Below, piece by piece: positions 3,600 through 27,928 of a DNA stretch of 64,000 nt. Position numbers and translations under genes: made by a program. Origin of the DNA: Thermoplasmatota archaeon (GTDB lineage Archaea; Thermoplasmatota; E2; DHVEG-1); NCBI GenBank assembly GCA_041650455.1, contig JBAZLE010000001.1, positions 157-64,156 of the forward strand, written 5' to 3'. The first letter of the stretch is position 1; each line of letters begins with the position of its first letter. A model generated the notes under the pieces. The model was given only the letters and a program-made list of their open reading frames with translations, had not been told where the DNA came from and did no database searches.

Positions 3600-5152
3600 G
3601 AAGAACACTCCTGATCACCAGCATTCTCCTCCTCAGCCTCTTCTCAGGATGTACGTTTCTTCACCAGACACACTTCACGCTGCTTTCTCTGGTTGTTGAC
3701 GATGACCAAGGATTTCCTCGGATGGTAGTGCAGTTCAACACCTCTGATACTTCGCATCTTCTCCTTACCGATCCAGCACATACTGTCCTTTTCTCAGGAA
3801 CCTATTATGCAGGAATTCATAATGAAAGCATGTATTTTTCTGGGTATCGCACGACGATTCCAGCGGGAATGTACCAGTTAACCGCGAAGGACTCATCACA
3901 ACACACGATTTTTGAAGAGGAGGTATCGTTCAATGGTGCGAATCTCTCGGTTACCTCGCTTTCTATTGACGGATGGAATGGCATCGCAGGTTCTCCAAGT
4001 ATCGCCTTCCACCTTAGCCTTACGAACACTGGTGATCTCCCCGCATATCCTTCTCGGTTGACGATCCTACAAGGATCCTTAGCCGAAGAGGTGTTGCTCC
4101 TTCCCGAGGTGATCCTTCCATCCACCACACAGTCTCTCACCTGTTTTGCCCCGCTCCTTGCTCCAACTGCTGAGGATACCCCACTGACGATATCTTTGTT
4201 TGACAGTACTGGAATGATTCTATCGCAAACGAATTTTTCCTTGGTGAAAAAAACTCCGGTCGGCTCTTGGGAGTACACCTGGTATTATTTCGGCTCCCAT
4301 ACGTTGAAAATTCCCCAAGTCGATTGGTTCCCTGATTATTACCGAGGCTTGGAACGATTTGATTTTGTTGATTACGCTGCCTATGTGTTTGATCCCTATG
4401 ATGATTCCTATCTCGAATTCCTCGTCGATCGCATCCTATTGCTCAAGGAAGTAAGATCAGATGTGGAGAAAATAAATTTTGTCGCCTCCTTTGTTCAAAG
4501 TATCGAATATAAAAACGATGATCCGGAGAACGACTCCTACGAGTATCCACGGTATCCGTTAGAAACCCTCCACGATAAACAAGGGGACTGTGAGGATAAA
4601 GCCATCCTGACCGCCGCCCTGCTGCAGAGCCTCGGGTATAATGTGTCACTCCTCCGACTTCCCCACCATATGGCGGTCGGGGTCCATCTCAATCAGACAA
4701 TACCACCGTATTCCTATTATGTTGATCAATATTATTTTTTAGAAACAACCACCCTGCATATGACCGTTGGAAAAATCCCCCTGGAATATGAAGGTCTGAC
4801 CAACATCAGCGTCTATCCACTCACCCCACGACCACTTCTTGTGCATCGCTGGAAGGACGCGACACGCTATAAAGTGAGCACTGGAGCAGATTATGTGACG
4901 GTGCGGATGATAGTTGAAAACTTTGGCACTGAGCCGACCAGCAGCATCGAGATCCGCGGTGCATTTTATGACAATTCAAACCAGATTTATCATCAACAGA
5001 CAACGATTGTTTCCTCCCTTTCTGCCGGTGAGAAACGGGTAGTGGAGCTCTCCGTTGATGTTCCCGTGGAAATCTCCACGACTCTGAAAACCCAATTGTT
5101 CATCGATGCTATCATGGTTCATCAACGAGAATCAACCTCGCAGTTCCCCTGA
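3590..5152 (+). CDS. Secreted/lipoprotein transglutaminase-like cysteine protease superfamily protein
   Basis: Signal peptide with a lipobox-like LFSGC. Transglutaminase-core-like motif DKQGDCEDKAILTAALLQSLGYNV. The start overlaps the aminotransferase stop by 10 nt. Confidence 0.7.
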   Translation: MPVGRTLLITSILLLSLFSGCTFLHQTHFTLLSLVVDDDQGFPRMVVQFNTSDTSHLLLTDPAHTVLFSGTYYAGIHNESMYFSGYRTTIPAGMYQLTAKDSSQHTIFEEEVSFNGANLSVTSLSIDGWNGIAGSPSIAFHLSLTNTGDLPAYPSRLTILQGSLAEEVLLLPEVILPSTTQSLTCFAPLLAPTAEDTPLTISLFDSTGMILSQTNFSLVKKTPVGSWEYTWYYFGSHTLKIPQVDWFPDYYRGLERFDFVDYAAYVFDPYDDSYLEFLVDRILLLKEVRSDVEKINFVASFVQSIEYKNDDPENDSYEYPRYPLETLHDKQGDCEDKAILTAALLQSLGYNVSLLRLPHHMAVGVHLNQTIPPYSYYVDQYYFLETTTLHMTVGKIPLEYEGLTNISVYPLTPRPLLVHRWKDATRYKVSTGADYVTVRMIVENFGTEPTSSIEIRGAFYDNSNQIYHQQTTIVSSLSAGEKRVVELSVDVPVEISTTLKTQLFIDAIMVHQRESTSQFP

Positions 5153-5259
5153 AGAATCCTTCCTCTCTTCATACAAAGGCAACCTTTTCTGGAAGCCGGT
5201 AATGAATTAGATCGGACGGGGACAAAGTTTATAACCCTAAGAACGTACATGCTTTTTTT

Positions 5260-5566
5260 GCTGGGCGTAGGTGGACGGTTGACGGTGACCTTTCCGGTTG
5301 CTGAGGAAAGTCCTCTCTCACTCTGAATCAGGATCCTGCGCAAGCAGGTAAGGCGAGAGTCTTAGCAGAGGAACAGAAACGACACAGCCCTTGGATTATG
5401 CGATGATTCACCTGGTGATGAGGTCTCCTTGGGATTTGGTGAAACGGCCAATCTGCTCCTGGAGCAAGCCCAAACATCGGGATCAGTTATTCAGACTGCT
5501 CGTAGGTAGGGCGCATCAGACAAATACCGTTAAAACAGAAAGAGGCTTACGGCCTACACCCAGCAC
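5260..5566 (+). ncRNA. rnpB: RNase P RNA (archaeal rnpB, ~307 nt)
   Basis: Noncoding stretch with a CR-I GAGGAAAGTCC motif and a CR-V-like ACAGAAAGAGGCTTA motif. A GGAGCAAGCCCAAACATCGGG segment resembles the archaeal type-A consensus. P1 forms between 5260-5271 (GCTGGGCGTAGG) and 5553-5564 (CCTACACCCAGC). P4 shows compensatory covariation (5' CCTCT with 3' AGAGG, versus the usual CCGGG/CCCGG). A TATA-like TTTATAA lies ~27 nt upstream. Confidence 0.75.
5539..5566 (+). repeat. rnpB 3'-terminal 28-nt segment (attL-like copy 1 of a direct repeat family)
   Basis: AAAGAGGCTTACGGCCTACACCCAGCAC. It is identical over 28 nt to 9117..9144, and diverged copies lie at 9757 and 10923. Confidence 0.8.
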
Positions 5567-5717
5567 TTATGTTCGAATAGAAATGGATTTCTGGATTTGA
5601 GTCGTAATAATTCTATTGCATCCAAAAACGTTCGGTAAAAGATTGGTTCTGGGCTATTCCTCAGATATCATTTCGACAAGTTCAGAGATATTCTTGCTTC
5701 AATTCTAAATCTTACGG

Positions 5718-6572
5718 CTACCATGGTGGTTGAAAAACATCTACTTTTACAAGGACAGCTGCTCCTAAAAAAAATGATCCTAATTTAATTCCAGTAAAAC
5801 CAAACGCCCCTGTATAACATTTCCAGTAAAATGCCATTACAGGAAATTCAATATGACCCCATAATGAACCGTTGATTGTGTCTATTCCATTTACACCTAC
5901 AGTATATATCCAACCAGTTGACGGATAAGCACCATAACCAGGATAATTATAAAATTCATCACCAAAAGTTAAAAGACTCAAAAAATTTAGCATAGACGCA
6001 GGCGTAAAATTTTTCATTATCCAAAGAAAAAAGGTTCCCATATATAGGAGAAAAAATTCAATTCTCGAAGTGAAGAACTTCTCGAATATAATCCTGAAAG
6101 CTGAAATTACGGTCTTAGCAACCCGACAATCTTCTGCTTCTCCAGTAATCAAACAAAAAAAATTATGACAAACAGAAATCTCCGAGTTATGTATTTTATT
6201 TACAATGTTTGTTGATTTTCCATTACCAACTACTAATCTCTGTGCCCGCTCAACACTCATACCCCTCGGCAACAACCCATACTTGTCCAACTCCACCACA
6301 GCATCCTTGAACAACGGGACTGCTTCCTCCCGTGTTGATGTCTGGTTCAATCTGGCTCTGAACTCCACCAGATACTGCTCCAGGTTCTGGTATTGTTCTC
6401 TGGTGAGTTTCACCGTGGTATCCCCGTATCCTTTGATGCCGCAGGGTTGTGTGGTGACTTCCACCAGGTCATCATCAGTGGATGCTTTCGCAGTGTTGAA
6501 GTTGATAGCTGGTGCTATGGTCACACCAACGAACAAGAGAATGATTCCAATCGCCAAACATTTCCGTTTCAT
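5718..6572 (-). CDS. Secreted hypothetical protein, paralog family A (signal peptide MKRKCLAIGIILLFVG...)
   Basis: The track ORF 5718..6800 was trimmed to the internal Met preceding a classic signal peptide. It shares GLLP(R/K)GMS(V/I)xRAQRLV and GW(I/V)(Y/W)T(V/I)G(V/M)NG...PPW blocks with the CDS at 8072..8938. The region is AT-rich. Confidence 0.6.
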   Translation of the reverse strand: MKRKCLAIGIILLFVGVTIAPAINFNTAKASTDDDLVEVTTQPCGIKGYGDTTVKLTREQYQNLEQYLVEFRARLNQTSTREEAVPLFKDAVVELDKYGLLPRGMSVERAQRLVVGNGKSTNIVNKIHNSEISVCHNFFCLITGEAEDCRVAKTVISAFRIIFEKFFTSRIEFFLLYMGTFFLWIMKNFTPASMLNFLSLLTFGDEFYNYPGYGAYPSTGWIYTVGVNGIDTINGSLWGHIEFPVMAFYWKCYTGAFGFTGIKLGSFFLGAAVLVKVDVFQPPW

Positions 6573-7284
6573 TGATTTATCTCCATATCCTTGATGTTCA
6601 ATCCGATTGATGGATATATCGGCCAGCATCCCAAAACAACTAAAAGAATAAAAAAAAGATAAGCAATAGTAGAAAACAGTATGTACCAAGGTGTTATCAA
6701 TAGTAATAATAATGGAAGTTGTAAAACAAACAAATACAACTCCTCTAGAATCATAGCAGGAATGCCAAACAAAAAAAACATTAAAAATAAACTTCCACAC
6801 AGAATAGGATAAGGAAACTCTGTATTTTCATTTTCACAATCACACTCAGAATCTTTCAACTGAGTTATTTCTGCATTGAGTATTGTATTCTTTTCAATAA
6901 CTGTTGATATCTCCTTCAGCATCCCCTGATTATCGATTTGATACTTACCAAGGATAGATTGCATTCTTGATGTGCTGATAAACCTTGAAAGCATCAATCC
7001 AAGAAGATACATCTGTCTAAGCTGATTCTTCATTAACACAGGAATCTCCGATGGTGGGAATATCCCTCTGCTTATCTGGGATTTAAGAATAATTCTCTGA
7101 ATATCCTTATTATTTGCAATATCAACGATGGTCTGGAATAACAACTCTCTCTGGTTGATTCTCTCTTTGATAGTGCTCTGTTGTGAGGTCTGGACTGTTT
7201 GGTATCCCACCACAGTGCTCAACGAACCCATCACAGAAGAACCACAGCACAGAGACTTACACCAATTAATGGACGTTTATCCAT
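6569..7284 (-). pseudogene. Secreted hypothetical protein, paralog family B, with a 1-nt frameshift inside the signal peptide
   Basis: The ATG at rc 7282-7284 gives MDKRPLIGVSLCAVVLL*. After a -1 shift the other frame continues (V)MGSLSTVVGYQT..., which matches the LLVLGSLSNVVGYQT leader of 7581..8081. Inserting one G restores VVLLVMGSLS. The C-terminal half is multi-TM. Confidence 0.5.
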
Positions 7285-7370
7285 GTCTTTCCTAGCCCTT
7301 TACCGCATTTTATAACACTGTTATCCTATATAAAGAATATTCCATCCCTGATAGGTAACAACATTTGCTC

Positions 7371-7448
7371 TTACCAGCCAAAGTAATTCTTTATTATAAA
7401 TCCGATGAGAAGACCGATGAAAAAACCAAAGATCGCCCCCCATATCAT
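7371..7448 (-). CDS. Tiny hydrophobic peptide (25 aa, MIWGAIFGFFIGLLIGFIIKNYFGW)
   Basis: An AGGAGG Shine-Dalgarno sits ~11 nt upstream of the ATG. The product is a single predicted TM helix. It lies between the paralog genes of the island. Confidence 0.25.
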   Translation of the reverse strand: MIWGAIFGFFIGLLIGFIIKNYFGW

Positions 7449-7492
7449 ACTTTTTCATTCCTCCTTATGATATGATATTTCATGTCATATAT

Positions 7493-7564
7493 TTAAATGT
7501 TATTCATAACACAGGTTCCAACGAACAAGAGAATGATTCCAACCGCCAACCGTTTCCTTTTCAT
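7493..7564 (-). pseudogene. Remnant 5' stub of a family-A gene (MKRKRLAVGIILLFVGTCVMNNI*)
   Basis: The 23-codon ORF is nearly identical at protein and DNA level to the signal peptide of 5718..6572 (MKRKCLAIGIILLFVG) and then terminates. This is a signature of deletion or rearrangement within a tandem gene array. Confidence 0.5.
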
Positions 7565-7580
7565 TTGAATATTCCTTCTG

Positions 7581-8081
7581 TTATGCTCTGTTTATTATTG
7601 GAGAGCAGATTATGAATATTTTATGCCTGTATACTAATTCATTATCATAATCAACACTTACTGATAAAGGAAATATACCAATATGACCTGGCGTCATGAG
7701 TGTTGGATTGCAATGAAAGTTTGTTGCATGGGATTTGTCTGGTTCTAATATTAAATTGAATTCCCATGTATAATATTCATTTGACACTCGAGGAGTAGGA
7801 AATTGAGATAATGTAATAATCACATCTAAGTCATTGATGGTATTTATTCCATTATTTGTGATATGAATAGTTGCATTGAAATCAGAGTTTTCTATGTATA
7901 TTCTTGGGAATCTTTGTTTGTATGTAATTATGTCTATTGTAATGTTAGATGTAGCTTCTGGTGTTGGTATAGTCTGATACCCAACGACATTACTCAATGA
8001 ACCTAGCACAAGAAGAACCACAGTACAGAAACAGACTCCAATTATGAGATACTTCTTTTTCATGGCATTTCCTAGGTCCAT
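7581..8081 (-). CDS. Small secreted hypothetical protein, paralog family B (166 aa, beta-rich)
   Basis: Signal peptide MKKKYLIIGVCFCTVVLLVLGSLSNVVGYQT, which it shares with 6569..7284. AT-rich. Confidence 0.55.
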   Translation of the reverse strand: MDLGNAMKKKYLIIGVCFCTVVLLVLGSLSNVVGYQTIPTPEATSNITIDIITYKQRFPRIYIENSDFNATIHITNNGINTINDLDVIITLSQFPTPRVSNEYYTWEFNLILEPDKSHATNFHCNPTLMTPGHIGIFPLSVSVDYDNELVYRHKIFIICSPIINRA

Positions 8082-8938
8082 GGAGGACTGTATGTAAAGT
8101 TGACTTCTCTAGCAAATCCTATATAGAAACGATTTGAATCATAATCCATTGATGAGAGAAAACAAAAAGGTTGAACGCCAACGAAACCTTTGATTCCTAC
8201 AGGATCCCAAGCATCAGTGTAACTATAATTATTATACACATATTTTCTATACCTTGTAAAAAGACCCCCGTAGAATGTTCCATTCCACTTTTGTACTCCG
8301 TTCATTCCAATCGTCCAAACCCATCCTGAAGAGGAAAAGTTCCACTCTTTAGTGACATTTCCATTCTCATAGGCTATAGCTCGACTTCCAGCAAACGCAA
8401 AGGGGCCAAACTTCAAGGGGCTGAAATAACGTATTGCATAAAACCATAGAAGAAAATTTAATTCTTCTTGAAGACTACTGTTGGTTAAAAGATAATAGAT
8501 AATCGGGATATCTAATATAGTAGGAAACGGCCTAAAAATAAAGTGATTCGTCATCCCAACAACAAGACAATTAGTATTCCCCATATCGTTCCCATCACTC
8601 TCTTGAGATGGATGTAAATATTCATTTTTTAAAAAACCCATAGTAACCAATCGTTGTGCCCGCTGGATGCTCATACCCTTTGGTAACAATCCTTGTTCGT
8701 GTAATGTTACGATTGCTTCGTTGATACAAACAAGAGCTTTCTGTTTCGTTGTGACTTTTTCTAATTTTACTTTTAAATCATTGAATATGTTCTCTACATT
8801 ACTATACTGAATATTTGTATTTATCCTAGGGTGTGATGTTTGTTTCCAACTTGTTGTTGAAGAAATAGGAAAAACCGCGGTAAGTATCACCAGCATACAA
8901 ATAAGGATACAAAATAGTCCTTTCTTGATAATTTTCAT
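8072..8938 (-). CDS. Secreted hypothetical protein, paralog family A
   Basis: The track ORF 8072..9094 was trimmed to the internal Met MKIIKKGLFCILICMLVILTA, which has a GGAGG Shine-Dalgarno 6 nt upstream. It shares conserved blocks with 5718..6572. Confidence 0.6.
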   Translation of the reverse strand: MKIIKKGLFCILICMLVILTAVFPISSTTSWKQTSHPRINTNIQYSNVENIFNDLKVKLEKVTTKQKALVCINEAIVTLHEQGLLPKGMSIQRAQRLVTMGFLKNEYLHPSQESDGNDMGNTNCLVVGMTNHFIFRPFPTILDIPIIYYLLTNSSLQEELNFLLWFYAIRYFSPLKFGPFAFAGSRAIAYENGNVTKEWNFSSSGWVWTIGMNGVQKWNGTFYGGLFTRYRKYVYNNYSYTDAWDPVGIKGFVGVQPFCFLSSMDYDSNRFYIGFAREVNFTYSPPWT

Positions 8939-9116
8939 TCCTCCGTACCATTTTAATAACAGTCTTCTCATATATATAATATATTCTTTAGTAGGAAAAC
9001 AGTGATATTGTTTTATAGAGACATTTAAAGAAAAAAAAGAATGGGATTTCTCCCATAAAATCTCGCTAACGTATTCTGTTCTGAGATGTGCCATATTTTT
9101 GTGTCTCTCGGAGGCG

Positions 9117-9144
9117 AAAGAGGCTTACGGCCTACACCCAGCAC
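9117..9144 (+). repeat. Direct repeat copy 2: exact duplicate of the rnpB 3' end (attR-like)
   Basis: AAAGAGGCTTACGGCCTACACCCAGCAC, a 28/28 match to 5539..5566. It lies between the secreted-protein cluster and the RelE gene. Confidence 0.8.
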
Positions 9145-9152
9145 CTAATAAA

Positions 9153-9407
9153 TTACAATTTTTTATAGACATTTTTCCGATGATCAACGAATAGTATTGA
9201 AATTCTTTTTGTTTTTTCATCGATATCAGCGATGACCCGATAATCTCCCACGCGTAGTTTGAATTCATCTCTAGAAGTCAATTTTTCAAAATAATGAAAT
9301 GGATTTTCTTTCGTGGAATGAATTTTTTCAAAAATTCTTTTTCTGGTTTTCTTTTCTAATTTACCTAGATCTTGTAACGTTACATCATCATAAATGACTG
9401 AATACAT
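9153..9407 (-). CDS. relE: Type II toxin, RelE/ParE family
   Basis: 84 aa. The C-terminal KLRVGDYRVIADIDEKTKRISILFVDHRKNVYK fits the RelE/ParE signature (YR(v/i)iY...i.il.v.HRk.vY). Confidence 0.8.
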   Translation of the reverse strand: MYSVIYDDVTLQDLGKLEKKTRKRIFEKIHSTKENPFHYFEKLTSRDEFKLRVGDYRVIADIDEKTKRISILFVDHRKNVYKKL

Positions 9408-9410
9408 TCA

Positions 9411-9650
9411 TTAAAGCCCTAGTCGATATTTGGCTTCCTCCTCGCTGACGAAATGCCCTTTTTTAATTCGTTCTCTTGCCGCTTCTATAGCTTTGATTGT
9501 TTCTTTGCTAAGTTTTGGTTCTTTTTTTAAGTTCTTTACGATGAAAATAAGCTTTTTGATAACCTCATCATAGCTTTCATTTTTGTATTCTCGGAATTGA
9601 TCGATTTGTGATTTTGTATCACTTTGAATCTTAATGGTTGTCGTGCTCAT
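9411..9650 (-). CDS. Putative cognate antitoxin (RelB/ParD-like)
   Basis: ~80 aa, immediately upstream of the toxin with a 4-nt gap. C-terminus is EEEAKYRLGL. The start was trimmed to MSTTT. Confidence 0.55.
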   Translation of the reverse strand: MSTTTIKIQSDTKSQIDQFREYKNESYDEVIKKLIFIVKNLKKEPKLSKETIKAIEAARERIKKGHFVSEEEAKYRLGL

Positions 9651-9756
9651 AATATACCAAAATATACCTATGTATACCATAGTATAAATAATTTCCTATC
9701 AACTTATTTCTTCTGTCATATAAATTTTTTAGAAAATCGTATTTTCTCCTGTTATA

Positions 9757-9784
9757 AAGAGGCTTACAGTCTACACATAGCACC
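9757..9784 (+). repeat. Direct repeat copy 3: diverged rnpB 3'-end duplicate
   Basis: AAAGAGGCTTACAGTCTACACATAGCAC, 24/28 identical to the rnpB 3' end. It shares an extra 5' flank, TTTTCTCCTG(T/C)T, with copy 4. Confidence 0.7.
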
Positions 9785-9796
9785 TATGAATAATCA

Positions 9797-10750
9797 TTAA
9801 TATTTTTTCATTATTGTGAAAAAGCTATCATATGTTTTTTTTCCTTGTTCTAACATAAACTGGTAATAACTTTTTTTTATTTTTCTTCGTAAACCTTTGA
9901 CTATCGCATTAGAGTATGCCCTACGGTTTTTTGCATAGATAATAATAGGGAAATATCCATGATCCATGAGGATCTTATTCATAATCAATCTACCTGTTCT
10001 TCCATTAGCATCTAAAAAAGGATGAATATATTCATAATTAAGGTGAAAATCGCAAGCTAATTGAAATGGGTATTTTATTTTTTTATTATCTTTATAATAT
10101 CGAAGAAGAGTATCTAGTTCTTTTTCTACTTGTTCAGGTGAAACAGTAGGTTGATTATTTACGATATTTTCTACTGTTTTAAATCCTTTAGGATAGTGAT
10201 CTCCTCCAGACATTGTCAGATTCTCGGTAAGAATATAATACAATCTTTTAATTGAAGAGATATTAAATTTAAAACCACTTTTTAAGTATTTTAACGCTTC
10301 AATTGAATTATACACTTCTTTAACTTCATTTGTATTTTTATACCTTGAATTACCAGTTTCAATAATTCTTTTTACTTCTTTGGCAGGAATTTTTGAACCT
10401 TCAATATTGTTAGAATTAAAAATGAATTCTTTAGCAAATTCAACAAGAACAACATCTCTAATATCTTTTATTTCAAAAAAATTGCTAATTTCAATAGATT
10501 TTAATTCCATATATTCTAACAAATGTTTGTTATACACAATATCTAACCTATCTAGAAATTTTTTTCGTATCTTGAATTCTTTTTCAGTTATATTATTAAA
10601 ATTTTTTTTAAGATAATCCTTAGCATTTACTGTAGAAATATTCTTTCCAATATGTTCTTTAATTCTGAAATTTTTTCCCATAAAAGAAAATTTTTTTACG
10701 AACGATATATATTCAGTATCATTAATCTTCTTTATTTCTATATATGACAT
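9797..10750 (-). CDS. fic: Fic/Doc family protein (putative AMPylator)
   Basis: 317 aa with a canonical Fic motif HPFLDANGRTGR. The gene is extremely AT-rich (~25% GC), consistent with horizontal acquisition. Confidence 0.85.
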   Translation of the reverse strand: MSYIEIKKINDTEYISFVKKFSFMGKNFRIKEHIGKNISTVNAKDYLKKNFNNITEKEFKIRKKFLDRLDIVYNKHLLEYMELKSIEISNFFEIKDIRDVVLVEFAKEFIFNSNNIEGSKIPAKEVKRIIETGNSRYKNTNEVKEVYNSIEALKYLKSGFKFNISSIKRLYYILTENLTMSGGDHYPKGFKTVENIVNNQPTVSPEQVEKELDTLLRYYKDNKKIKYPFQLACDFHLNYEYIHPFLDANGRTGRLIMNKILMDHGYFPIIIYAKNRRAYSNAIVKGLRRKIKKSYYQFMLEQGKKTYDSFFTIMKKY

Positions 10751-10922
10751 TAGAAAATAGTATGCTCACGGGGTTTATATATTTTTACAAATTGGGCAGC
10801 AAAAAATACCACTTTTTTTACCAATACGGCACAAATCATCCATACGTCTGTTAAACAAATTATAGATTTCCAGTAATTCTGTCAAGGATTTTTTCAAAAA
10901 AATTGTGTTTTTCTCCTGCTTT

Positions 10923-10951
10923 AAAGAGCTTTCCTATCTCCACGCAGCAAC
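10923..10951 (+). repeat. Direct repeat copy 4: degenerate rnpB 3'-end duplicate
   Basis: AAAGAGCTTTCCTATCTCCACGCAGCAAC preceded by TGTGTTTTTCTCCTGCTTT. Repeat plus flank align to copy 3 plus its flank (GTATTTTCTCCTGTTATAAAGAGGCTTACAGTCTACACATAGCAC). Confidence 0.55.
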
Positions 10952-10979: not shown

Positions 10980-11480
10980 TTAGATCCTTCTGCGTTTCCT
11001 TGCAGTCAGGACAAGCGTTTTAATTTCTGGTGGTAATTGTTCATCTTGCCATTTTCGTTCGATTTCTGTGGATTCCCCTGCGTTTTTTACGGCTTTTACC
11101 GCATACCATGCTGCTCCTAATGCATGGTCAGCCATATGGGCTGTTGCGACCGCGTGTCCAACAGAACGAGCCACAGCACTTGCTGTCTGGTTTGAAGATT
11201 TTCGAGCAACCGCATGAGCAGCTACTGCTGCATTTCGTGCATCACCCACGGAAGCCTGCCCGTGTTTCCACGCATTCGCCAGCTTTAATGCGTTTTTTAA
11301 TCGCTCGTCTATGTTGTCCCCAAAGAGCGGTAAGACATGCTTCGCACAGTCGCAAGCCCATGTCATCAACTGATGGTGCTGTTCCTTTTTTAAGGGTCCA
11401 CCCCGATGCTCTACAATAAATCGTTTGTCTCGCATTTTGTCTTTCTCCGTAATATTCTGTGAAGTTATTTGTGTTTTCAA
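10980..11480 (-). CDS. Hypothetical Ala-rich all-helical protein (possibly immunity-protein-like)
   Basis: 166 aa. The A-rich periodic helices GDARNAAVAAHAVARKS...AVARSVGHAVATAHMADHALGAAWYAVKAV suggest a possible immunity-protein-like role. The likely true start is the internal MRDKRF. GC content is higher than that of the neighbouring island genes. Confidence 0.5.
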   Translation of the reverse strand: MKTQITSQNITEKDKMRDKRFIVEHRGGPLKKEQHHQLMTWACDCAKHVLPLFGDNIDERLKNALKLANAWKHGQASVGDARNAAVAAHAVARKSSNQTASAVARSVGHAVATAHMADHALGAAWYAVKAVKNAGESTEIERKWQDEQLPPEIKTLVLTARKRRRI

Positions 11481-27674: not shown

Positions 27675-27799
27675 CCCTTTCTGTCTCCAAGTTGTTTTCT
27701 AAATTTGATGAATAGTATATGAATAATAGTTTATTAGTTTAGCGGCTCATGTCCGATTCACGTGTTCAAACCGCAATAAAATAATGACCCTAAAATACT

Positions 27800-27853
27800 C
27801 ATGCAAGGTAACTTAGCTGGAAAAACTCCATTTCGACTAAGTTGCCTTGCATG
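27800..27853. promoter_or_regulatory. Perfect 17-bp inverted repeat with a 20-nt spacer in the divergent intergenic region
   Basis: CATGCAAGGTAACTTAG-n20-CTAAGTTGCCTTGCATG, located between the GTPase operon (minus) and the coiled-coil gene (plus). Confidence 0.5.
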
Positions 27854-27928
27854 TAAAAATAATAACCCTTAAATAGCATCAACATTATTCGCATGTCAGA
27901 GTATTAATTATTTGGGACGGCATGAGTT

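Follow-up and report, generated by a model that had tools for sequence, protein, structure and literature searches.

A probable, partly decayed composite of exported-protein modules in a putative RNase P RNA-site cassette of a Thermoplasmatota archaeon

What is a cluster of small, AT-rich genes that appear to encode exported proteins doing beside the RNase P RNA gene of a Thermoplasmatota archaeon, and how was it put together? The cluster lies at positions 5,718 to 8,938 of a 64,000-nucleotide stretch of contig JBAZLE010000001.1, the whole of which was analyzed here and is called the window. An earlier interpretation made from the letters alone (the sequence-only reading) saw in it two families of secreted proteins, A and B, multiplied by tandem duplication. 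Our analysis suggests, with a probability of roughly 0.55, a different account: the cluster would be pieced together from modules, some of them decayed, of an exported-protein system that is specific to the lineage and present in many copies; it would be carried in a cassette at an RNase P RNA site, and the A and B1 proteins would serve as surface-interaction modules. The anatomical and evolutionary part of this account is held with high confidence, and the functional part is tentative.

Along the minus strand the genes follow one another in the order A2, B2, a stub consisting of a leader only, B1 and A1 (Table 1). Since the A2 stop lies 8 nt from the B2 start, and the B1 stop and the A1 start overlap in the sequence ATGA, each of the two pairs looks co-transcribed and coupled. 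The open reading frames (ORFs) of A1, A2, B2 and the stub are as first described; the fourth of the genes originally counted, B1 at 6569..7284, is not a single ORF, and only A1, A2 and B2 look intact in the window. The low GC content noticed at the outset is real (0.35-0.38 in the cluster region versus ~0.43-0.47 in the flanks), and so is a DNA repeat that had been put at about 50 nt: 48 nt of the A1 leader (6526-6573) recur at the stub (7518-7565) with 92% identity, which is above the median nucleotide identity of ~72% for such leaders in other loci. The gap of ~190 nt from the stub to B1, apparently the place where a gene was deleted, is free of ORFs except for a hydrophobic one of 25 codons, for which no homologue was found in related loci.

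The two A proteins match each other by BLASTP (E=6e-21, 26% identity across 253 aa) and have in common the elements GLLP(K/R)GMSxxRAQRLV and a C-terminal PPW. The grouping of A1 and A2 that was first made on these elements is thereby upheld, and the two are true but distant paralogues. A1 is identical to the 'hypothetical protein WC525_00045, Candidatus Thermoplasmatota archaeon', and its closest relative outside the window is 86% identical. With a family-A profile, 1468 representatives of 50%-identity clusters are retrieved at E<=1e-3, and for 691 of these the match reaches E<=1e-30. The named sources of the matches are metagenome-assembled genomes (MAGs) of Thermoplasmatota/Thermoplasmata, bar two that are labelled Actinobacteria bacterium and Ignavibacteriaceae bacterium, and several family loci occur in one MAG (7 in Prado234, 5 in SMAG_U14648). 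An alignment of 50 sequences divides the family into three parts. The leader and residues ~32-116 (DDDLVEVTTQACGIKGYGNTTVKLTREQYQNLEQYLVEFRARLNQTTTREEAVPIFKEAVVELDKYGLLPKGMSVERAQRLV) are at least 90% conserved, residues ~117-200 are unalignable and rich in indels, and the last ~85 residues retain a skeleton of Gly, Trp and aromatic residues. By hydropathy, segments of transmembrane (TM) grade are present in the variable part of 42 of the 50 members.

Neither known domains nor known folds are matched by these proteins. Searches of Pfam, PADLOC and PHROGs gave no match to A1, A2 or B1, all NCBIfam matches of the cluster's proteins are far under the cut-off, the family-A profile found nothing among PDB sequences, and for an AlphaFold2 model of A1 neither PDB nor BFVD yielded a fold match at E<=1e-3; the original statement that the cluster lacks recognisable domains agrees with these results. 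A common origin of A and B1 was considered and rejected (hhalign probability 1.9%). A viral origin was likewise rejected, with 0 PHROG hits, 0 tblastn hits in 50,697 phage records and 0 relatives in IMG/VR contigs.

In B1, the ATG at 7284 meets a TGA after 17 codons. A single base is missing near 7235 (CTTC-TGTG versus CTTCTTGTG in three homologues), and the loss of this T brings the TGA into frame. B1 would thus be one of three things: a pseudogene, the result of a sequencing error, or a leaderless product that starts at the GTG at 7234. With the base restored it is a normal family member of 238 aa, 88% identical to protein P0147 over 98% of its length. The relatives of B1 number at least 880 matches (90% clusters), and those of B2 only four at full length, the closest with 80% identity. 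Because the similarity of B1 and B2 is limited to the leader and their sets of homologues differ, the two are not paralogues, and the "family B" in which they had been united is not a family. Members of the B1 family have ~150 invariant residues ending in SECDCEN, followed by a hypervariable hydrophobic tail that is bracketed by invariant cysteines and contains TM-grade segments in nearly all members; AlphaFold models this tail as a helical hairpin with pLDDT >90. B2 shows a sub-threshold resemblance to immunoglobulin (Ig)-like and CARDB-like domains, the Pfam match to PF21633 (Ig-like) having E=0.009 and 16.5 bits, under the cut-off of 27.4.

The division into constant and variable parts is also seen in the pattern of substitutions. 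Pairs of family-A N-domains have a synonymous divergence (pS) of 0.4-0.7 versus a nonsynonymous divergence (pN) of 0.06-0.2, and recent gene conversion as the source of the constant regions was rejected, as the synonymous divergence of both N-domain and leader is high. Between A1 and its closest relative, in locus L053, pS is 0.66 in the leader and 0.39 in the N-domain, and falls to 0.00-0.02 across the variable part and the beta part. Past the stop, identity is 100% for 51 nt, and similarity then stops inside a conserved motif. Between B1 and its counterpart in locus L054, constant-part pS is 0.33 and variable-part pS is 0.12. These comparisons place one breakpoint at the junction of constant and variable parts and, for A, another at the conserved motif just 3' of the gene. 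A trait in the style of polymorphic toxins, in which a conserved N-part is joined to a C-part exchanged by recombination, is therefore present. Omega is ~0.6 in the variable parts versus 0.14-0.25 in the constant parts, and the variable segment of A1 differs from that of L053 by 7 nonsynonymous and 0 synonymous changes, too few for significance. The rapid evolution proposed in the sequence-only reading thus holds for part of the length, the variable C-parts, and not for the leader and N-domain, which purifying selection keeps near-invariant in their protein sequence though not in their DNA.

The motif at the 3' boundary is found in ~30 clusters, each of which carries the ~30-nt sequence ATCTGAAATTGTC(T)GAAATGATG just past the stop, and its position coincides with the 3' boundary of recombination. 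It is a sequence motif only: a hairpin proposed for it was rejected, since RNAalifold gave 0 pairs and the covariation score of the hairpin equalled the shuffled mean. The exchanged genes have varied neighbours. The A1-like gene of L053 follows a beta-helix gene, and the gene after the B1-like one is a divergent A-like gene in L054 but of the beta-helix type in L055. A cognate pairing of B1 with A was rejected because the neighbours of the closest B1 relatives differ.

Two types of leader, MKRKxLAIGIILLFVG... and MDKKPLIGVSxCAVVLLVLGSLSNVVGYQ, stand little changed on mature proteins that are unrelated to one another, namely family A, B1, the 'C' type, NosD-like beta-helix proteins and PQQ/PKD/CARDB-like proteins; hybrid leaders are also found. 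With a leader pS of 0.5-0.67 versus a pN of ~0.15, purifying selection is long-standing even on the leader peptide. The leader sequence seems constrained beyond the generic need of the Sec route, which hints at either an anchor that is retained or a recognition step dedicated to it. The assignment as signal peptides follows the n/h/c pattern only, with c-regions of the type A-K-A↓S or VVG↓YQ judged by eye. A class III (pilin) signal and a lipobox were looked for in the same way and rejected, as neither pattern is present (MKRKCLA-IGIILLF..., MDKKPLIG-VS...; no [KR][GA] directly before the hydrophobic stretch).

The order of genes in related loci helps to explain the arrangement in the window. 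Among 45 species-representative loci, A is almost always the last gene, the usual order being (C/B)-(beta-helix)-A, and it often overlaps start to stop with the preceding gene. That gene is of the NosD-like beta-helix type in ~24 of the 45 and of the B1 type in ~8; operon partners in general comprise PQQ propeller, PKD, peptidase M28 and NosD beta-helix proteins. The NosD-like partners in six loci (L001, L004, L051, L053, L054, L155) end in a conserved tail (...NYW...(F/I)DW.PA.EPYDI), a candidate docking motif. The stub has the leader subtype '...LLFVGTC...', which in related loci heads beta-helix or other cargo genes and never A, and its best DNA matches are leaders of beta-helix genes. An A or a beta-helix gene comes ~15 nt after the B2 orthologue in both L050 and L051. 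The stub is thus read as the remnant of the gene that once followed B2, most likely a beta-helix gene; it had been taken for a third copy of A, and it looks instead like the leader of a lost beta-helix gene. Because A stands last in the usual order, B2 orthologues precede A or beta-helix genes, and the stub is of this subtype, a better reading of the locus is that A2 closes one module and a second, decayed module comes after it, made up of B2, the stub of a lost gene, the frameshifted B1 and A1.

How the cluster reached this position is indicated by direct repeats in which the 3' end of RNase P RNA recurs (REP1 to REP4 in Table 1). REP1 and REP2 have an exact match of 28 nt, with a chance expectation of 0, and enclose the A/B cluster as one cassette of 3.5 kb. 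All genes of the island point toward the RNase P RNA gene, and in every unit the repeat comes right after the 3' end of the last gene. Because REP1 and REP2 are near-identical, the A/B cluster fits the most recent arrival, and the most degenerate copy, REP4, is probably what is left of the oldest attR. Scanning metagenome contigs for exact matches to a 26-nt core yielded at least 118 loci, including empty sites, arrays and many orphan copies. In three empty sites (L092, L162, L163), RNase P/REP is followed directly by the metallophosphoesterase gene, and in L092 the sequence covered takes in the upstream transglutaminase-like gene as well; in L107, L118 and L172, and in L174 over a sequence that stops short of the upstream gene, only the Imm5-like gene stands between the two, which is a common arrangement. 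L067 and L155 are arrays with two or three repeats adjoining RNase P, single A-like or beta-helix genes form repeat-bounded units in L170 and L155, and the REP-bounded ParE cassette is also present in L021, L079 and L097, with the same 639-nt spacing in L079 and L097. The L021 copy (4589-5300, MAG Prado234) is a ParE/DUF7557 cassette of ~90% nucleotide identity with RNase P-end repeats, situated between an A cluster and transketolase genes, and the RNase P gene is absent from the 10.4 kb of L021 examined.

Mobility is also seen in other related loci. In L158 (1-7488, read with RNase P on the plus strand), an element of 7.3 kb between two copies of the RNase P-end repeat encodes a tyrosine integrase (PF00589, E=6e-24) adjoining RNase P; a secreted protein and an ORF of the IS200-like transposase type are carried on it as well. 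In L004 (5137-13880), an 8.7-kb element between 62-nt direct repeats of the 3' part of tRNA-Ser(GGA) contains an integrase, a PQQ propeller, a NosD beta-helix, a family-A gene, a P-loop protein and a zinc-finger protein. L002 (8668-11240) has a 2.5-kb insert consisting of a 128-aa gene, B1 and A at an intergenic site that is empty in the window (27.7-27.9 kb). On both sides of the L002 insert stand direct copies of a 20-mer that resembles a promoter (AAAATAATAACCCTTAA), and at 27775-27877 of the window two copies of the 20-mer surround a perfect-looking palindrome of 55 nt (CATGCAAGGTAACTTAG...CTAAGTTGCCTTGCATG).

These comparisons show that such clusters travel on integrase-bearing elements, and the 3' end of the RNase P RNA gene appears to be an integration hot spot that collects small cassettes in one orientation. 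The claim that the cluster is island cargo, already made in the sequence-only reading, is well supported by sequence comparison, because RNase P-end direct repeats, empty sites in relatives and homologous clusters on integrase-bearing elements all point to it. In the literature that could be searched, no publication was found specifically on RNase P RNA as an archaeal integration site, or on these protein families. Elsewhere in the window, an Rfam tRNA match on the minus strand spans 118 nt (1447-1564) and is not called by ARAGORN; it probably represents an intron-containing tRNA, and it adjoins tRNA-Gly(TCC) at 1584-1656.

Table 1. Coordinates of the A/B cluster, the RNase P RNA gene and the cassette array in the window
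Feature	Position	Strand	Remarks
Archaeal RNase P RNA gene	5263..5561	plus	Rfam RF00373, 165.7 bits, model 1-288/288; last 24 nt form the putative attachment-site core
REP1	5538..5569	plus	32 nt: RNase P RNA 3' end (24 nt) + 8 nt; attL-like
Conserved motif 3' of the cluster	5655..5689	minus	ATCTCTGAACTTGTCGAAATGATATCTGAGGAATA; window copy of the ~30-nt motif; homology to L053 stops here
A1	5718..6572	minus	284 aa; leader and near-invariant N-domain, then a variable middle and a Gly/aromatic beta domain
B1	6569..7284	minus	Helical exported-type protein with C-terminal TM hairpin; leader frameshifted
Hydrophobic 25-codon ORF	7371..7448	minus	MIWGAIFGFFIGLLIGFIIKNYFGW; preceded by a GGAGG-like sequence
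Leader-only stub	7493..7564	minus	MKRKRLAVGIILLFVGTCVMNNI, then stop; 23 codons
B2	7581..8063 (alternative start 8081)	minus	160 aa; exported-type, beta-rich
A2	8072..8938	minus	288 aa; divergent member of family A
REP2	9116..9147	plus	31/32 identical to REP1; bounds the A/B cassette
ParE toxin and DUF7557 antitoxin	9153..9680 (ParE 9153..9407, DUF7557 9411..9680)	minus	Next cassette
REP3	9755..9786	plus	Degenerate, 81% identical
Fic-domain cassette	9797..10750	minus	
REP4	10909..10949	plus	Most degenerate copy
Imm5-like immunity-type protein	10980..11480	minus	Array flank, followed by the metallophosphoesterase gene

What the proteins might do is a more tentative matter. A and B1 are most likely, on the basis of their sequences, membrane-anchored surface-interaction modules. 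The Sec route would take them out of the cytoplasm and they would remain attached to the membrane, with the variable hairpins embedded in it and the invariant ectodomains in contact with a conserved partner. Both may act as membrane-anchored partners of co-encoded secreted cargo of the glycan-binding or beta-sandwich type, and their variable parts may have been diversified under pressure from viruses or competitors. NosD-like proteins, the commonest cargo, have been proposed as glycan-binding or adhesion proteins (PMC13452462). Several observations weigh against this account. By hydropathy, A1 and A2, like B2, reach TM grade only in their N-terminal hydrophobic segments; after the leader A1 is borderline and A2 is without a TM-grade segment, unlike 42 of 50 family-A members. 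The AlphaFold2 model of A1 is only moderately confident (pLDDT 76.9, pTM 0.54), the B1 ectodomain, that is, all but the tail, is poorly modelled by AlphaFold, and no fold or sequence match of A or B1 points to a function. With a frameshift in B1 and only a stub left of another gene, the locus may no longer function. In addition, there is no integrase in the window cassette, and none between 5.5 and 11.9 kb.

The sequence-only reading had left a choice between an adhesin and a polymorphic system of the toxin/immunity type, and both are candidate roles; neither a toxin domain nor a cognate downstream immunity gene was found, and the closest B1 relatives have different partners. A toxin/immunity role, which we regard as unlikely, would make the families an archaeocin-like repertoire of membrane-active proteins, in which the variable, hydrophobic, Cys-bounded C-part of B1 and/or A damages membranes after export and another variable TM protein of the cluster protects the producer through helix-helix contact. 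Pore-forming colicins and their immunity proteins provide one model for such a system, and the precursor of halocin C8, with its signal, N-domain and C-terminal hydrophobic Cys-bounded peptide, provides another. The constant N-part with its hypervariable, recombining C-part, the invariant cysteines around the B1 hairpin, the higher omega of the variable parts and the 7:0 changes between A1 and L053 (not significant) would all suit it, as would the conflict-type islands with ParE, Fic and Imm5-like genes nearby and the many orphan or decayed copies. However, no toxin or immunity family was matched in Pfam, NCBIfam, PADLOC or PHROGs, and no conserved gene lies downstream of A, where ~30 loci have the non-coding motif and then unrelated DNA. 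Neighbours do not co-vary either, as the near-identical B1 variable region of L054 stands beside a quite different A-like gene and the next-closest B1 relative, in L055, beside a beta-helix gene, and the invariant residues in the C-part of family A are Gly, Trp, Cys and Leu, none of a catalytic type.

A similarly doubtful explanation takes A and B1 for ordinary lineage-specific envelope proteins, the variable parts being relaxed membrane anchors in which hydrophobicity is all that is needed, and the many copies reflecting a large repertoire of exoenzymes with no role in conflict or recognition. The mostly hydrophobic, helical nature of the variable segments, their omega below 1 and the typical exoproteins encoded by partner genes (NosD beta-helix, PQQ propeller, PKD, peptidase M28) are in line with such anchors. 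Against them, the length and indel variability, together with the 1468 clusters at 50% identity, is extreme for simple anchors; the variable parts were recently exchanged and the constant parts anciently diverged; and the clusters occur on integrative elements, in locations that differ among close relatives.

Tandem duplication of a B-A unit in place, followed by deletion, is very improbable: two A genes and two genes with the B leader do lie within 3.2 kb, and the 48-nt repeat exceeds the usual similarity of leaders, but the identity of A1 to A2 is only 26%, B1 has nothing in common with B2 past a leader that dozens of unrelated proteins carry, and A1, B1 and B2 have much closer relatives in other metagenomes (86%, 88% and 80%) than in the window, with differing neighbours. 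No more credible is an assembly artefact, in which chimeric joining of paralogous loci at their leaders produced the stub, the frameshift and the odd order; many related contigs do end in A-family leaders or N-domains or at the REP, where repeats break assemblies, but the DNA identity of leader copies is only ~72-92%, the stretches of exact match are short, and REP-bounded cassette arrays recur across many independent assemblies. The contigs that end in these sequences (L031, L040, L042, L046-L048 and many of L057-L174) indicate that the repeats fragment metagenome assemblies, so that copy numbers per genome are probably underestimated.

Both families are limited to abundant, uncultured sediment Thermoplasmatota and are without a name, domain or fold assignment. 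They combine an unusually sharp split between invariant and hypervariable parts with leaders conserved far past the need of export and with mobility on integrative elements. Should specificity lie in the variable membrane hairpins, archaea would have in them a new way to diversify their surface or fight neighbours. A bolder proposal, which we consider a long shot, is that the thousands of A/B1 variants form a repertoire for recognition or antagonism, with specificity in hypervariable intramembrane hairpins on invariant ectodomains, a dedicated and sequence-specific leader route, cassette-like recombination, and integrases at RNase P RNA and tRNA genes. If true, this would be a membrane-level self/non-self or toxin/immunity system without a described counterpart, in an integron-like array at an RNA gene. 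The RNase P site also offers a testable pair of integrase and attachment (att) site for a lineage that lacks genetic tools.

Several known systems resemble the A/B clusters in part. Polymorphic toxin systems of the CDI/Rhs type have the same conserved N-part and variable C-part replaced by recombination, orphan or decayed copies and location in islands, and an Imm5-like gene lies 2 kb away here. Unlike in those systems, there is no known toxin domain and no immunity gene directly downstream of A, and the variable part of A/B1 stays homologous or hydrophobic instead of being swapped among unrelated enzymatic folds. The Neisseria pilE/pilS and Mycoplasma Vsp genes are families of surface genes with a constant leader and a variable body; in them, as in family A, the variable segment that is exchanged lies between a 5' coding part that is constant and a DNA element that is conserved on the 3' side. 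They differ in that the synonymous sites of the constant part are far diverged here, with no ongoing homogenisation.

The array itself recalls integrons, which also consist of small cassettes in the same orientation, each ending in a repeat; toxin-antitoxin and Fic genes, the cargo found here, are typical of chromosomal integrons. However, there is no IntI or attI here, and the repeat is a 29-32-nt direct copy of the end of an RNA gene, not an imperfect-palindrome attC. Tandem islands at tRNA and tmRNA genes (Islander-type; PMC4383910) and cis-mobilisable elements are similar in that their direct repeats copy the 3' end of a stable RNA and degenerate with distance, in their empty sites, and in a tyrosine integrase beside the RNA gene, as in L158. 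Unlike them, the target here is RNase P RNA, and most units are of 0.6-3.6 kb, with one or two genes and without an integrase, all oriented toward the RNA gene. The beta-helix surface proteins of the NosD/CASH type, known from archaea and their viruses and proposed to act in adhesion and in the binding or cleavage of glycans (PMC13452462), are, with their signal peptides, the commonest class of operon partner of family A; A and B1 themselves are not beta-helix proteins, and the window keeps only a leader stub.

The nearest described analogue is VARTIG of the Thermococcales (Makarova et al. 2021, PMC8416519), a module of secreted and membrane proteins in variable islands, with a C-terminal hypervariable region derived from inter-genome recombination, a polymorphic-toxin-like organisation and a function given as unknown. 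Its authors found no such module outside Thermococcales (PMC8416519). The A/B clusters are likewise a lineage-specific archaeal module, located in variable islands and having a recombined hypervariable C-terminus. They differ from VARTIG in that no large multi-Ig protein of the arCOG07710 type, with a hypervariable C-terminal Ig domain, is present in the locus or in related clusters, and in that they are built from two small families, unrelated to each other, that combine a near-invariant N-domain with hydrophobic hairpins that vary and with common leaders, and that occur in several to many copies per genome together with beta-helix partners.

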